From the NCBI GenBank assembly GCA_951406725.2, contig OX597815.1, positions 26,350,001-26,414,000 of the forward strand: 64,000 nt of DNA, read 5' to 3'. Under the pieces are notes generated by a model. That model had not been told where the DNA came from. It saw only the letters and a list, made by a program, of their open reading frames with translations, and did no database searches. Of the stretch, positions 750 to 63,075 are shown piece after piece. The stretch is from Octopus vulgaris. Its lineage: Eukaryota. The number at the start of each line of letters is the position of its first letter. Positions within the stretch are counted from its first letter, which is position 1. The position numbers were made by a program, and so were the translations under genes.

Positions 750-1306
750 ATGTATGTATGCATACACACATAGATTACTGTGTCTATATTTCTACATTTG
801 TACGCATAACATTGTCTGTTTTCAACCTGTCTCGGTATTTATCGTTTCGGTTTTATAATAATAAAAATTACCAGTTGTTACATTTAAAAACTATAAATGC
901 TAATCACATTTGCGATCAGCTGCCTTTCACTAATTGGAAAACAAATAAATAATTATCTACATCTCTAAACTTACACTTTTATATTTTTGACAGACAGTTT
1001 ATAGAACTCTTGTGGAGGCACGCCTACATTTTGCCTGCCTTTTAATCTTAGTGTATTCATGTTTGCATCTCTATACAAATGTATCTGCGTACATATGAGT
1101 GTAGAGTCACGCACACACACACACATATATATACTTGTATATGTATACAATTATATACAAATATATATTTTATATGTATACACATACACACACATGCATA
1201 CATGCAAACATACATGCATATATACATACATACATACATACATACATACATACATACATACATACATACATACATACATACGTACATACATACACATAAC
1301 CAGAAA

Positions 1307-1432
1307 TGGCTCTGACGAAAGTAGCATTAATTTTTTTTTAGGTCATTCAATTTTTCTCAGTTGATTAATAGACCAGTTGAGTAAACCGATCAGTAATGTA
1401 CCTATAATGATACTGGAAACAGCTGTAAGCCA
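1307..1432 (+). ncRNA. Type I hammerhead ribozyme with intact core and ~97-nt stem II
   Basis: TGGCT(1307-11) CTGACGA(1312-18) ... GAAA(1416-19), palindrome ACAGCTGT(1419-26), GUA triplet, AGCCA(1428-32). Stem II pairs 1320-29/1405-14, 1339-47/1395-1404 and 1356-63/1374-81. AATAAA at 1443-48. Confidence 0.8.
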
Positions 1433-1487
1433 AATTTGCTCCAATAAAGGAAAGATATGTAATGACCATTACTTTTATTTTTTTACT

Positions 1488-1555
<68 letters not shown>

Positions 1556-1745
1556 AGAGAGAGAGAGGAAAACACAGAGGGCACACAACACACATATGCA
1601 CACACAAACATGCACATACCTTGTTAATAGCAAGAGTAAGCCCTAAATCATATTGTACGGACAATATTTAACATATTTATATATCTGCGTACATCCAAGT
1701 ACATAACTCCATATATAGATATTTGCAAATACAATAATGTACATA

Positions 1746-1804
<59 letters not shown>

Positions 1805-1980
1805 GAATTAGAGATAAAACCATTATTAGGCAACTCAAACAGTGATAGACATAAACCAATACATAAATAACAAATAATATAAATATAATTAATATAATAT
1901 ATGATATATAGTGAAATTTGATTTAATCCTAAATCTAATTTTTCCCTGTAAGTTTGGACCCATACTCCCTAATATTATTA

Positions 1981-2084
<104 letters not shown>

Positions 2085-2339
2085 GTTTATAAATAAATAA
2101 ATTAATAATAAATAATGTATATGCATTATATGCTGAAATATAATATATATGTATGTATATGTATATTATATATATGCATGTATATAAGCCCATTCACATG
2201 CACATACATAGAAACATTCATGCAAATATGTATGTGTGTGTGTGTGCGTGCGTGTGTGTGTGTGTGTGTGTATCTGAAACAATGGGTCTGATTCATTTCT
2301 ATTATACTTGCATTAAAAAATATATAATTATCTTCTACC

Positions 2340-2505
2340 GTACAAATTTTTGTGAGATACTAGAAGAACCCACATCACGGCAGGAGGGCAGTTCCGTCCA
2401 ACTCGCTACTGAAGTACAGAAAGAGATATCGAAACTCACTGATAGGCAGTACCCCAGCATGGTCACAGCCTCTGGCTGACATCGGTGAAGATAAAAGATA
2501 AAAGA
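2340..2505 (+). mobile_element. CR1-like LINE 3' end remnant with SINE-shared tail
   Basis: Fragments EILEEPTSRQE and SNSLL resemble the CR1 ORF2 C-terminus (PDEP...NSL). They are followed by ccccagcatggtcacagcctctggctg and (GATAAAA)2. Confidence 0.55.
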
Positions 2506-2797
2506 TATATGACTTAAATGCTAACTTGTAATTAGAATCAGCACCCTTTAGTAATTTTAAATCAATTTCTTATGTTCACCAATAAAAGAACTCTATATAA
2601 TTTTGTAAGCTATCCCTAGAATACTTTAGCTTGTTTCATTCGTATTTCTTCTCTTCATTATAGTTGTGCCATACATACATACATACATACATACATAATA
2701 CATACATACATACGTACATACATACATACATACATACATACATACATACTTACAAACCTATCTACCTACATTATATATATGTATGCATTTATGCACG

Positions 2798-2829
<32 letters not shown>

Positions 2830-3141
2830 TGTATGTATAGTAAATAGACTGCGCGGTTTTTGGAAGATTTGTTTCTGGAAAAACAAAATAATGTTATTTG
2901 ATTCAATTAAATAGTTAATCTAGTATTTAGTAGACATGCCTTGTGCATTAACAAGTTTGAAGAACCAGGTAGTGTCCTCACACATAAAACGGTATAACGT
3001 GGTTTAGTGACGGATATCTGTTTTCTTTTGAGCTACCATTTTTTTTGTACGTATGTATTCATATGTATGTGTGTGTTTGTATACACATATATATCCGGTG
3101 ATGTACCTTTTCTACACACACATAAAAATACATACGTATAT

Positions 3142-3205
<64 letters not shown>

Positions 3206-21227: not shown

Positions 21228-22555
21228 ATGGGTTGGACAAAATAATGGAAATAAATTATAATTTCAAACAAATTCATTTTAAAATGCTGTTGAATGGCGG
21301 TGCCCCAGCATGGCCACAGCTCGTGAGCTGAAACTAGATGAGATAAGATAAGATAAGATCGCATTTGGCAGTAATTACACCTTGAATTCTACGAGTCGGA
21401 ATTGTTTCCAGAGGGATTTTTGTCAATTCTGTAGCTAGAACAGTCTCCACTTCTTGTTGTGATGATGGTGGAGGATGTCGACTCCTTAATTGTGTTTATA
21501 AAATGCACCATAAATGTTCAATAATATTGAAATCTGGGAACTGTTTTTGCCAGATAAGATGTTTAACTTCACTAGAATGTTCCTCGTGCCATTCAGTAAC
21601 AATTTTTGCTGTGTGAATTGGTACATTATCATCCTGAAATATTGCGTTTCCCTCTGGAAACAGTTCCGCAACCATAGGATGAATTTGATCAGATAAAATG
21701 CTTAAATAGTCTTGACTATTAATTCTGCCATGAATGGAAACCATTGGGCAGATTTCCAAGATATAGCCCCCCCCCTCCGCCAGATCATCACAGATCCTCC
21801 TCAATGTTTATCAGTTGGAAGAAAGCAGTGTGGGTCAAGTGCTTCGTTAGGCTGTCTCCACACCTATACTCGGCTGGTGGTCGGAAATAAGGTAAAGGAT
21901 GACTCGTTTGAGAAAATAACATTCTTCCACTGCTCTAGGGACCAATTCTGTAGGTTTTTGCTCCACTCTAAACGCTTTGCAACGTTTGTTTTTGAAAGTA
22001 GTGGTTTTCTGATTGCAGCCCTTTCTTGAAATCCGACTTTATGCAGCTCCCAGCCAACGGCTTTTCTGGAAACTGGGTTCTCGAGGTGGCCATTAAGCTC
22101 TGCAGTAATTTTGAAAGCTGTACTTTTGTGATCCTTTCTAACAATTCGCGTAAGAGTCTGATGGTCCCGATCCGTATGTTTTGGTTTCTTCCGGAGTTTT
22201 GTTTCGGCGAGGAGGTTTTTCCCTCTTTCTCAAAGGCTGTCATTACTTTCGAGACAGTACTTCTTGATAAACGAGATGTTTCGGGCGTTTTCATTACGCT
22301 AGCGCCTGCCATTTAAGCACCGACAATTTGACCTCTTTGAAAGTCCGATAGATCTGTCATTTTAATGAATTTTAATTACCTTTTTCTGATGATATCTGAA
22401 AAGAAACTGCAATTTTAGCAAAACATATTGAGCAACACTAATAAGAAATAATATTAAAAACATAAAAATAAAAAGGCTTTTGACGGTTTTATAGGTATTT
22501 CAAAATTATAATACTATGATGTTGCTATTTTTCATTATTTTGTCCATTTTCTGTA
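21228..22555 (-). mobile_element. Tc1-family DNA transposon, decayed, DD36E spacing
   Basis: TIRs tggacaaaataatggaaata (21234-53) and its inverse at 22526-46, ending ctgTA. Transposase from ATG 22360: MTDLSDFQRGQIVGA...SRSTVSKV...SGR; VIFSNESSF; IFQDDNVPIH...PDFNIIEHLW. Contains frameshifts. Confidence 0.9.
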
Positions 22556-41760: not shown

Positions 41761-41890
41761 CTGTAGTGATTATAAAAAAAACTTTCAGGCACAATAATGG
41801 CTTATTGAGACGGAAGGTTGCAGATCTGCAACCTTCCGTCTCAATAAGCTATTATTGTGCCTGAAAGTTTTTTTTTTATAATCACTACAG
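41761..41890. repeat. Near-perfect spacerless 130-bp palindrome
   Basis: Centre AGATCT at 41822-27. The arms differ by one substitution and by an A8 versus T10 run. Confidence 0.95.
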
Positions 41891-42450
41891 GAACTGTACT
41901 CATTGTAAACTCCTCTTGTAATTTTTACGTTACATTCAGGATTAAAGTTATTTTCAGAGAACTCTTAAAGACCTTTAGCAATACTCATTACAGTGAATCT
42001 AAGTGGAATTTCCGTATTCTCATCTGTATTCCTAACTTGTCTGGTTCTAACGGCACCAGCTCCTTATTAGATAAAATTACTCTCCGGGACACTAGCAATT
42101 CAATCACATCATCTTCTACAGCTTTTCCAAACCCTACATCATTTGAAAACGTCATAATATCTTTCCAAATCTGATGTACACCTTCTGATTTTGGGAAGCT
42201 TGTAAAGTTACGGATTCTATTTGGTCATGTGTTGTTCCAGGCACCATTCAAACCTGCGGGTTTCACTTCAGCAGCTTAATATCATCAGCTTTTATTATGC
42301 TGGACCTTTTCTCGAAGTTTCTGACTGTAGGTTTATTCTCCTAACCACCTACTTTCATAAGTTATTTGAATGTTTCCAGTCTGTATAACCTGAAGTCATC
42401 TATCACAAATTGATCACTTGGCCGGTGCAGAGAAATTGTGTCCAACATCA
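41830..42450 (-). pseudogene. pogo/Tigger transposase remnant
   Basis: DTISLHRPSDQFVIDDFR (NTTSLIQPMDQGVI..FK), VKPAGLNGAWNNT*P...FTSF, VGFGKAVEDDVIELL...LSNKEL. Confidence 0.7.
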
Positions 42451-42927
42451 AATTTTTATTTCATAATCGAATTAACACGAGAGTTGTCAACCTACGATAC
42501 AGAAATTACAAACGTTCGAATGAAGTTTTAAAAATATATGGGACCTATGGTTATTTGTCATTTAGAAGTGTTTGTCTTATCGTGAAATTATGCAAAGACG
42601 TTTTTTAAGTCTTCTAGGTATATTGACTGAGAAAACAAGTAATAAATCAAATAAATTCTCACGAACATCGACTGAAATTGCAAGACGTCTACACAACTCG
42701 TCCGTATATACGTTTATGGACTGCTAACGGTGAAGTCAGTTGCAAAATACATCAGCTAGAGTTCGTAATTTTGTCAGCTTACCTGTATATTATGAATCAA
42801 GCTTTTGAATATGCAGATAAAGCTCCTATTCAATTATGCCGGCCACAGTCTAATGATGTTGACTGGTGAAGCAGTTTTGTGGGGGTTGCATCGAACTATC
42901 CCTCCGTTGTACATCCATTAACGTGAT

Positions 42928-43061
42928 ATCGCCTGAAGAAATGAATTCATGAAGATGATCAACCCGATGCCCACGGATACAATGAAGTACACTGTAATCA
43001 TCCCAGAAATACGGACTGTGATCTTAAGAGACATGTGATTTGTGGAAACGCGCGTAGCGAT
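42928..43061 (+). ncRNA. Type I hammerhead ribozyme with intact core and ~105-nt stem II
   Basis: ATCGC(42928-32) CTGAAGA(42933-39) ... GAAA(43045-48), palindrome ACGCGCGT, GUA, GCGAT(43057-61). Stem I extends via TGAT/ATCA. Stem II pairs CATG/CATG, GATCA/TGATC and CCG/CGG. Confidence 0.8.
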
Positions 43062-43133
43062 GCATCAAATGTTTATAAATTCCATCCAAGGACTATTGTT
43101 ATTATATATATATATACACACACACACACACAG

Positions 43134-43227
<94 letters not shown>

Positions 43228-53493: not shown

Positions 53494-54768
53494 CAAAGGA
53501 CGACTGAAAAGTTCAGACTGACCAAGATACCCTCATGTGACCAAATGAGGTTTATTTTCAGCATAGACTCCTTTACGGTCCACAAACATTTCCCATCTGT
53601 GTTGCAGTGCTTGGCTCTCATTGGTGAGAAAGCTTTCATCCTATTCGACAAAGAAGACGACAACACCAGTTATGACGTCATCGCCATTGCAATACTGCTT
53701 CCCTGTCAGATGGGGCTAAATCAGGAGAATCGGAAGGGGATCAACTATTTCAAAGCTACTGTCACGCGCAGCAGCCATTGAAACAAAGGACTTGTGCTCT
53801 GGAGCATTGTCTAGGTGAAAGAACACTTTCATTAGTTTTCTAAGGTGTTTGGCTTTGAGAGTCTTTCGTAACTGCCTTAGTAATTTGAAAATAATACTCC
53901 TCGTTAATGGTGTGGCCATTTCGAAGAAAGTTAATAAACACAATGTATTTTTGCATCCCAAAAAGCGCAGGCTATCACCTTCTCTGCAGGTGAAGCTACC
54001 TTGACCTTCTTCGGAGCAGGTGAAGGGAGGTGTTTCCACTGCATGGATTTTCTCTTTGTCCCTAGCTCAAATTGATGGAACTAGCACTTATCTTGGGTTG
54101 CGAAACGTTCGAGGAAGCCAGCTGGATCTGCTTCAAACAATGTCAGATTTTCTCGTGATCTGATCAGCCTGGTGCAATTTTGATCAAGTGTTAGAAGACG
54201 TGGTACCCACCAAGCAGAAATGTTTGTCGTGCCAAGTTCATTGAGCAGAATATTCTCAACTCTCTCACGGCATATGTTAATAGCATTGGCTATTTGACTT
54301 ATAACAAATTACTTGTCATCTATAACCATGTGGTGAACACAACCAACGTTTTCTTCGACGGTAACAGTTGCAGGAGGTCCAGACCTTGAGTCGTTTTCAA
54401 GATTCTCCCTTCTCTTAAATTCAGCTGATGATGCTTCAGTTTTATCAACACTGCAAAATCACTTTTGCAGTGTTGATAAAACTGGAGCATCATCCCATAC
54501 TGTAGTAACCATGGCAGCGTGAATGTTCTTGGAGACAAAACCCTTTTGCTTCAGGTACCTGATAACACTACGATGCCATATTTTGTCCCTTTTCAAGAGG
54601 AGTCATTACTAGCTACTTTTGAAGTCTTTGAACAGTCAGATGTCTGTTTAGCGGGAAAGAAACAATGCTGGTATTCATAAGTAGAGTTTGAAATTGATGA
54701 ATGCAAGATTTCACAACTCTAGCATCTCTCCTTCTTAGTTAGCCTATGAACGTTTCAGGTCATCCTCT
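53494..54768 (-). mobile_element. mariner DNA transposon (irritans/Himar1-like), decayed
   Basis: TA-flanked TIRs (ctgaaaagttca..ctgac / ttagcctatgaacgtttcag). Motifs WVPRLLT, VFFHLDNAPEHKS..SMAAARDSSFEIVD..P..APSD and a C-terminal RW..FV..KG.Y.E. A solo TIR lies at ~54951-54976. Confidence 0.88.
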
Positions 54769-61234: not shown

Positions 61235-63075
61235 CACCCATCTGCCCCTCCAGCTCCGATATAGGTAAGATCAGCGAAATTAAGCTCGATCGGTTAATAA
61301 CCCAACTGTCCACCACATCTACATTAAAACTCTGGACCAAAGCTACTAAAGCTATCCAGTGGTCCAATTCTTTATGCTCTAAGCACACCTTTAAATTTAT
61401 ACAAATCGACATTGATCAATACTACACCAGCATATCTCCTGTTCTCCTAAAAAAGGCCCTAATCTTCGACAAAACCCATTCCAACCTATCTCGCGACGAT
61501 ATTGATATAATATTAGCAGCCTGCCGAAATATCATACTGTTCGATGGGAAATCCTGGACCCACAAGGGTACACCCAACTTTTTCGACGTTCCATGGGGGA
61601 AGTGACTCCGCCCAAGTTGAGATTACATAGTTAATGGTCTCCATGAACAAGTCCCTAACATTTCCGGTGGTTTATTCAGAGACGACGCTGTATTCGAAAT
61701 CCAAAATTCTAGCAATCGACAAATCGAACAGACCTGAAAAAGATTAAGAAACTGCTAATTTCTTAGACGCAACCCTGAGCTTGCAAAACCAAGCCTTCTA
61801 CCCAAACCTGGGAAAAACCTCCACTACGTGAACGTCTTCTCCACCACTCCCTCCATCCTATAATATATTGTGTAAAGAGTTTCCTACGGGATTTCCTCAC
61901 AATCTACTAATAAGGATTTATTCGATCAATATGCTGAATATCATAATTGTGCCCTACAAAGTGCCGGATATAAAAGCTCAATCGAATACATCCCCATGTG
62001 GAATACTCCTCTCTCTACTAAACCCGGAACTGAAACCAGTTCCGCACCGCCGTATAGTAAACACTATCCTCATCCATTTACCCACCTCCCCAATCGGATT
62101 AAACAACTAGAACCCGGGACATTATCTGATTCCACCCCTCTCCTCCACCCTTAATATTCAGACTCGAGTACCTAGACTCTTCCTCGCCCTACTCGAAAAA
62201 CTTATCCCTAAATCTAGCCCCTTTAGAAAAATATTTAAAATATTTAATCTATAAAATTGTCCTACTCCACCACCACCAACATTGCCGGAGTTAACCGACA
62301 TCTTAACAAGAAACTCAGAAGTCCACAACCAGAAAACCTCCAATCTAATAAATTAACTCAACATAACAGCCCAGATCCATATGTATAAACCAAAAACACC
62401 AATTGACCCCCTTATAGTTGGAACTATAACTCCAACTATAATTCCACTACTAACACCCGATCCTTAAATTTACCACAACGCCCAACTATACCTCTTGTAT
62501 AAATAGAGAGCGACACAGAATATACCAGATATCATATCATAGAACCCTACAATATCACACTCAACTCCTTAACAAATATTAATCTTAACGCCAGCAATAA
62601 CGACGAATCTAACACCGGTTCCTGACTAAATAACAATCCGTTCACAAGTTCATCCGGAACACCTCCTACAAACCTATCTAGTTGTAGACGCCCAACTTCC
62701 TGACCTTTAGATAACTGCTGTCTCACAAAAAACATCGTTTATAATTGTACGGTATCAACTGCCAACTATAACTACATATATATCGGCTCATGTAGCACCA
62801 CTTTCAAAGCTAGAGTAAGCAACCACTACTCCATTTTCAAATCCCAAACAAAATCGAGAAGTACATCGTTATCTCAGCTTATCAATAAACTAAAATTTGA
62901 TTCAACTTCTTACACTCTCAAGTGGTCCATAGTCACTCACGCCAAGCAAGCCATAACAAGTGTGATTTCTGCATAACTGAGGTCTTGACTATCTTGCAAT
63001 TCATGTCTTAATGGACACAACAGTATAAATTTTACCTGCAAACATCGGTCACAAAATGTATTCTCAAAATATTAA
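61235..63075 (+). pseudogene. Penelope-like element, Naiad-type RT + C-terminal GIY-YIG endonuclease, decayed and 5'-truncated
   Basis: RT: ICPSSSDIGKISEIKLD, FIQIDIDQYYTSIS, SW.HKG...FDVP(M)G..DSAQV, GLFRDD. Endonuclease: SSCRRPTS*PLDNCCL..NIVYNC...YIGSCSTTFKARVSNH...STSLS...LKWSI...KCDFCITE...CKHR. It interrupts a SINE (61005-61235). Confidence 0.85.

Follow-up and report, generated by a model that had tools for sequence, protein, structure and literature searches.

A probable truncated Hydra-type Penelope-like element in the Octopus vulgaris genome with a type I hammerhead motif and a 105-nt stem II

Positions 42928-43061 of the 64-kb stretch of the Octopus vulgaris genome analysed here (the window) read as a hammerhead ribozyme whose two core halves are separated by a stem II domain of 105 nt, and this raises the question of whether such a motif is a hammerhead at all, what kind of element carries it, and whether its RNA is cut. 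The reading that we favour, and consider quite probable, is that a 5'-truncated Hydra-type Penelope-like element (PLE) left its 3' end, with a type I hammerhead, at this locus, that the RNA of its parent element was likely cut after GUA as a palindrome-joined dimer, and that this particular copy is likely dead.

The motif and the repeat that carries it

The features of the locus are as follows, by window coordinates and strand.

42803..42897, minus strand: a fragment of the optional 3' tail, truncated and inverted, which faces the forward copy head-to-head (on the opposite strand it matches positions 800-895 of the family majority at 83%)
42898..43115, plus strand: 5'-truncated 3' UTR end of a putative Hydra-type Penelope-like element (92.7% match to family majority positions 562-777)
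42928..42932, plus strand: stem I 5' arm, ATCGC (pair probabilities 0.87-0.92)
42933..42939, plus strand: catalytic core CUGAAGA (DNA CTGAAGA), by sequence and script
42940..43044, plus strand: stem II domain, 105 nt, opening with A and closing with G; the majority sequence of the 42933 family folds here as one long hairpin
43045..43048, plus strand: catalytic core GAAA, by sequence and script
43048..43055, plus strand: palindromic helix III, ACGCGCGT, the predicted dimer interface (computed energy +2.4 kcal/mol as a hairpin versus -13.3 kcal/mol as a self-duplex)
43056..43056, plus strand: N17, the A of GUA, with the cut predicted 3' of A43056 from the hammerhead consensus position
43057..43061, plus strand: stem I 3' arm, GCGAT, by sequence and script
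43106..43220, no strand: (TA)n/(CA)n microsatellite at the 3' junction, read from the sequence

An earlier note on this DNA had described 42928-43061 as a hammerhead, one of two in the window with like architecture and unrelated helices. The architecture is borne out: by reading and by script a type I core is present base for base at 42933, with CUGANGA and GAAA, the A15.1-U16.1 pair and NUH, and none of 200 block-wise local dinucleotide shuffles gave a descriptor match that had a palindrome of at least 8 nt together with five stem I pairs. Stem I consists of five Watson-Crick pairs (P about 0.9) in an open-ended helix I, and stem II runs from an A.G mismatch through a basal helix of ~11 bp with one bulge into an irregular hairpin. 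The first stem II pair of type I hammerheads is usually, though not absolutely, G10.1-C11.1; here the position is occupied by A-U, followed by two G.U pairs. A descriptor scan of the window that left the length of stem II free from 7 to 200 nt returned exactly two matches, at 1312 (stem II of 97 nt) and at 42933 (105 nt); in both, helix III is an 8-nt palindrome, GUA is present and stem I has five pairs. Their sole common sequence is a 7-nt core match and the arms of the two families are unalignable, which confirms the pairing of like architecture with unrelated helices.

Rfam at E<=10 over 42560-43100 gave neither a hammerhead nor a SECIS, only three weak unrelated matches, and among the matches listed for the whole window (150 of 643) there were only microsatellite-driven miRNA matches. 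A 98-aa frame at 42945, inside the motif, is closed in the context of the family majority and was dismissed as a gene. Elsewhere in the window, a 130-bp near-perfect inverted repeat (95%) occupies 41761-41890 and is adjoined by a minus-strand frame at 41991-42224 for which Pfam is blank; this frame resembles the tail of a pogo/Tigger transposase, and frames 21496-22316 and 53716-54066 (-) look like remnants of Tc1/mariner transposases.

The host genome is large (2.8 Gb) and rich in microsatellites, and the repeat at 42898-43105 has 2098 first-look candidates genome-wide, of which 40 were scored. Copies of this 42933 family are dispersed, nested 5' truncations of a coding element with a common 3' end, often in head-to-head inverted arrangement, and they form no tandem array of non-coding monomers. 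The optional tail is ~130 nt long and directly follows the unit in other copies; its start is present in 27 of 73. Read by eye, the 3' junctions of most copies are (TA)n or (ATT)n, which matches the (TA)n insertion preference of the Hydra clade, and the microsatellite at 43106-43220 is likely the insertion target. Of the 73 5' ends, 16 cluster between 175 and 200 nt upstream of the cut, immediately 3' of a pyrimidine-rich tract, which possibly reflects a stall of reverse transcription. The short forward copy with its inverted tail would be a product of target-primed reverse transcription that began at one of two 3' positions; for an Anolis PLE, two internal priming sites have been shown (PMC11167929), in agreement with the two classes of 3' end seen here.

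The linked coding element

The linked PLE ORF that the earlier note anticipated was found by walking upstream in the longer copies of the 42933 family, where ~510 nt of 3' UTR separate the hammerhead core from the stop codon of a Hydra-type ORF comprising RT and a GIY-YIG domain. The majority translation of the GIY-YIG region from 30 copies has the linker CNCRRKEEC, no CCHH, and the strings CNLC..E and N..SE...SCKH; that is, it has a CxCX5C linker, lacks CCHH, and carries CxxC and CxH flanking E and N, all of which are given as Hydra-clade features in section 11 of Craig et al. 2021 (PMC8557442). The longer copies extend to the RT motif YRDD and the SNHP thumb. Nine of ten long loci tested match the 806-aa Hydra-type frame of locus L349 from the same genome, and seven of eight match another homologue, P0137, which carries RWR, DKT and CxCX5C. 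All eight long copies examined end by 5' truncation before the N-terminal DKT/RWK region, and the corresponding RT motifs are present in the homologues (DKT in L349; RWR and DKT in P0137). Pfam named no family for the local ORF and gave only sub-threshold RVT_1 and GIY-YIG matches, on homologues P0041 and P0002, while word-indexed protein searches returned no matches. Judged by its motifs and protein matches, the 42933 element is classed as an EN+ Hydra-clade PLE.

Near-intact young elements of Hydra type also occur in this genome (L349, positions 787-3204, and also L353 and L354), with an 806-aa open frame, a stem II of 50 nt and the palindrome ATGGCCAT. The family of the 1312 motif, by contrast, is left unlinked to an ORF because 15 of its loci gave no PLE protein match up to 1.5 kb upstream. 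That family (window 1297-1445, plus strand) has 1301 first-look candidates with ~1 kb of upstream sequence in common, and its arm of about 96-97 nt is well folded (z -4.6). A degenerate Hydra-type PLE lies at 61240-62937 on the plus strand, its RT and GIY-YIG regions matching the L349 frame, and the descriptor scan of the window placed no hammerhead behind it.

Eukaryotic SECIS elements combine a quartet, an 11-14-bp helix and an apical AA, and a K-turn has a 3-nt bulge before tandem G.A pairs. The earlier note had speculated that opposed AUGAU and UGAU words in stem II could form such a quartet or turn; a SECIS would serve a selenoprotein ORF. The words do exist, with UGAU on both strands of the 42933 arm, and the Naiads include selenoprotein PLEs with a 3' UTR SECIS. 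Their reading as SECIS or K-turn falls, however, on several grounds. The words lie 59 nt apart, which fits no simple SECIS spacing; quartet, 11-14-bp helix and apical AA were not found together in the arm; and the sequence AAG-AU-GA opposite GA-U-CUU lacks the 3-nt bulge that a K-turn would require. Of 27 family members only 10 retain the two UGA words together, and divergent subfamilies have Watson-Crick partners in their place, GACU/AGUC or GGCU/AGCC, swaps which point to a plain GAUC/GAUC helix. In the endonuclease region of the linked ORF, moreover, conserved Cys codons are TGT or TGC, no single one of them being TGA in more than 3 of 30 copies, and the Rfam search described above returned no SECIS. 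We give this interpretation next to no credence.

Fold, dimerization and cleavage

As a monomer the window copy folds no better than its shuffles (z +0.96; stem II alone, +0.63), and the stem II of the family majority, one irregular hairpin, reaches a z of only -1.66. Reaching the hammerhead-ready fold costs 1.9 kcal/mol over the minimum in the majority sequence and 3.5 kcal/mol in the window copy. A C-to-T change at 42947 is predicted to create a competing local hairpin in the window copy, and in basal stem II, where five of seven pairs of the majority sequence have probabilities of 0.8-0.97, the pair probabilities of this copy are at most 0.01. The description of this copy as having an intact core holds for the core itself, but the copy carries 7 differences from the family majority over 136 positions, and the predicted fold leaves its basal stem II unformed. 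Misfolding is predicted for the window copy, which is likely dead.

Across 27 family members 77% of stem II cells pair, yet no measure beats shuffles; the distal stem II has no covariation beyond shuffled alignments of these members (149/500 for pairing, 65/500 for score), and RNAalifold gave no consensus stem II for them, just a spurious 4-bp hairpin. Conservation of the core was assessed in 73 copies at 70 loci (~70 of 177 matches), picked by a downstream anchor and regardless of the core. Core mismatches number 34 of 536 against 56 expected from base-matched sites (site permutation P=0.02, the copies being non-independent), and the whole core is kept in only 8 of the 36 copies that span the motif.

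The computed energetics of helix III match the dimer model described for PLE hammerheads (PMC4209133, PMC6765202), and on this basis we infer cleavage after A43056 for the parent element. Two RNA copies, either tandem repeats or two transcripts, would pair their palindromes to form helix III, and the RNA of an active parent would likely be cut after GUA as a dimer. Stem II would be an outward-pointing arm whose base must pair and whose length, from 8 to ~117 nt in this genome, would be tolerated rather than required.

Two footprints of cleavage, both of them insensitive for a motif at the 3' end, were sought in copy ends and in RNA reads. The 5' ends of the 73 copies are spread over 200 nt without a pile-up at the cut: none falls exactly there and five fall within 3 nt, three of which sit at the alignment anchor. 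RNA reads of a related organism occur on both strands, all from diverged copies, with no pile of beginnings or ends at 43056/57; reads on the young element L349, at 0-3 per run, are too few to show one. The lack of a footprint would fit an alternative that sees the motif as a structural signal retained in the 3' UTR, with cleavage negligible or irrelevant to transposition. So would the weak basal pairs of the 42933 stem II, the finding that metazoan PLE hammerheads have little activity in vitro (PMC4209133), and the behaviour of the Anolis PLE, whose catalytic mutants insert in vitro unimpaired and for which no RNA-seq ends fall at the cut site (PMC11167929). A structural signal would not explain why many unrelated families retain the catalytic core and GUH and conserve them more strongly than neighbouring bases, and we regard it as improbable.

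Long stem II arms across the genome

Genome-wide counts of exact patterns were set against reversed-pattern controls. With no A.G constraint, stem II lengths of 7-37 nt gave 9066 matches versus 644 in the control. At 87-117 nt there were 4682 versus 574, a count that may be inflated by repeats that are not ribozymes and by a few short motifs with a core sequence lying upstream by chance (L081 is one such), because helices were checked on A.G-type matches only. When the stem base was restricted to A and G, there were 868 matches versus 35 at 56-86 nt, 666 versus 42 at 87-117 nt (an excess of 624), and 63 versus 52 at 118-148 nt, which is background. The excess at 87-117 nt is thus 8- to 16-fold, and the counts per length class indicate continuous arm lengths up to a ceiling near 117 nt. 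Where the earlier note proposed a conserved structural class marked by A.G at the base of stem II, the recurrence of long-stem-II motifs with unrelated helices stands, whereas A.G fails as its marker, being present in ~15% of long motifs (624 excess matches versus about 4100 unconstrained at 87-117 nt).

Two further observations concern these searches. A highly uniform, high-copy repeat, for example at C1:2814482-2814593, fits the long pattern and makes up ~10 of the first 100 matches listed. The short-stem hammerhead matches (7-37 nt), with an excess of ~8400, belong to many families and are often found as inverted pairs.

A sample of 147 motifs, hand-picked for diversity among the first 100 matches listed per search and from family searches, and leaving out 20 loci of the 118-148-nt A.G search, fell into 42 sequence clusters, of which 33 are singletons and some are surely chance. 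The central 4-mer is palindromic in 22 of the 42 clusters versus 6.5% expected; among 109 pattern-picked copies, 58 form at least four of the five stem I pairs, against 4-6 in slid comparisons; and of the 42 clusters, 23 form at least four of five basal stem II pairs, where swapped arms give 13%. The first stem II pair is A-U in 14 clusters and G-C in 6. Chance juxtaposition of the two core halves within a repeat would be in keeping with the unremarkable fold of the window copy and with the rise in chance matches as gaps lengthen. It is refuted by the positions that the pattern leaves free, which obey the fold, by the shuffles of the window and by the excess over reversed controls, and its probability is negligible. 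The long stem II is a genome-wide class that recurs in many unrelated families.

We found no arm of ~100 nt in the literature consulted on long stem II or on cephalopod PLE hammerheads, though Lunse et al. (PMC5785218), reportedly on PLE hammerhead variants, and bioRxiv supplements could contain examples. Hydra-clade PLE hammerheads (PMC8557442) resemble the 42933 motif in being of type I and at the 3' end, downstream of an ORF with a C-terminal GIY-YIG domain and the same CxCX5C, CxxC and CxH motifs, and in their (TA)n targets and short helix III. As in 42933, the base of their stem II is often flanked by an additional nucleotide on either side, and many Hydra rows of File S2 also lack G10.1-C11.1. 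They differ in stem II itself, which by our own count measures 12-26 nt in the 26 Hydra rows of that file against 105 nt, some four times as much, in 42933; the longest stem II in the file, 54 nt, belongs to a spike-moss element flagged as deviating. That study searched spacers of 7-17 nt and noted half-cores at 35-50 nt, and three motif strings from the two window families were not found in its supplement.

The minimal, palindromic PLE hammerheads of Cervera and de la Pena 2014 (PMC4209133) share with 42933 a short helix I, an extra base after A9, a palindromic helix III implying dimers, and occurrence mostly as single truncated copies with opposite-strand pairs. Their helix II, however, is 6-8 bp with a conserved G10.1-C11.1, whereas in 42933 an A-U pair opens a ~100-nt arm. 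Poseidon PAc of Anolis (PMC11167929) likewise has no RNA-seq ends at the cut and has an optional 3' tail, explained by two reverse-transcription start sites, but it belongs to another clade and its ORF begins inside stem II, while the stop codon precedes the 42933 motif by a wide margin. Animal non-LTR retrozymes (PMC7229834; bioRxiv 10.64898/2026.07.22.740005) also carry a type I hammerhead in a dispersed PLE-related repeat; unlike them, the 42933 family has no tandem short units and consists of nested 5' truncations of a coding element.

An arm of this size might be more than tolerated: it could be a selected second domain, for docking of the RT/endonuclease or as a helper in dimer folding, in which case its length and shape would matter. 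In favour of selection, strong folding of stem II is found in several unrelated families (of eight further multi-copy clusters, five reach z -4.3 to -5.0 and three do not), and arm length has the ceiling near 117 nt described above. Among 50 loci picked by endonuclease alone (52 locus-strands), 14 motif calls have a stem II of 44-65 nt, mostly 50-65 nt; the calls at 44-48 nt look like chance, and near-intact young elements retain an arm of 50-53 nt. The Anolis PLE hammerhead, moreover, is cut only when protein is added (PMC11167929). Against selection, no sequence motif common to the families was seen, arm lengths run continuously from 8 to 117 nt, the distal part lacks covariation, and a stem II of 12-26 nt suffices for the published Hydra elements (PMC8557442). 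A selected domain is possible in our view, though on the unlikely side, and we prefer to see the arm as a tolerated extension of a hammerhead that was likely cut as a dimer in the parent PLE.

The association of PLEs with hammerheads, the dimer design and the inverted-tail layout are already known; what is new is the scale and shape of the stem II arms. The excess of ~4100 matches at 87-117 nt, compared with ~8400 at 7-37 nt, suggests that a large share of the hammerheads in this genome lies beyond the spacers of 7-17 nt searched in PMC8557442. As a tentative and rather doubtful extension, stem II of the PLE hammerheads in this lineage may have turned into a large modular domain, 50 to ~117 nt long and capped, which brings in the RT/endonuclease of the element itself or permits cleavage of dimers. 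If that were true, thousands of ribozymes would be invisible to standard descriptors and counts of animal hammerheads would be much underestimated. Long-arm motifs are natural constructs for relating arm length to dimer cleavage or protein binding, and provide a handle on what PLE hammerheads do.
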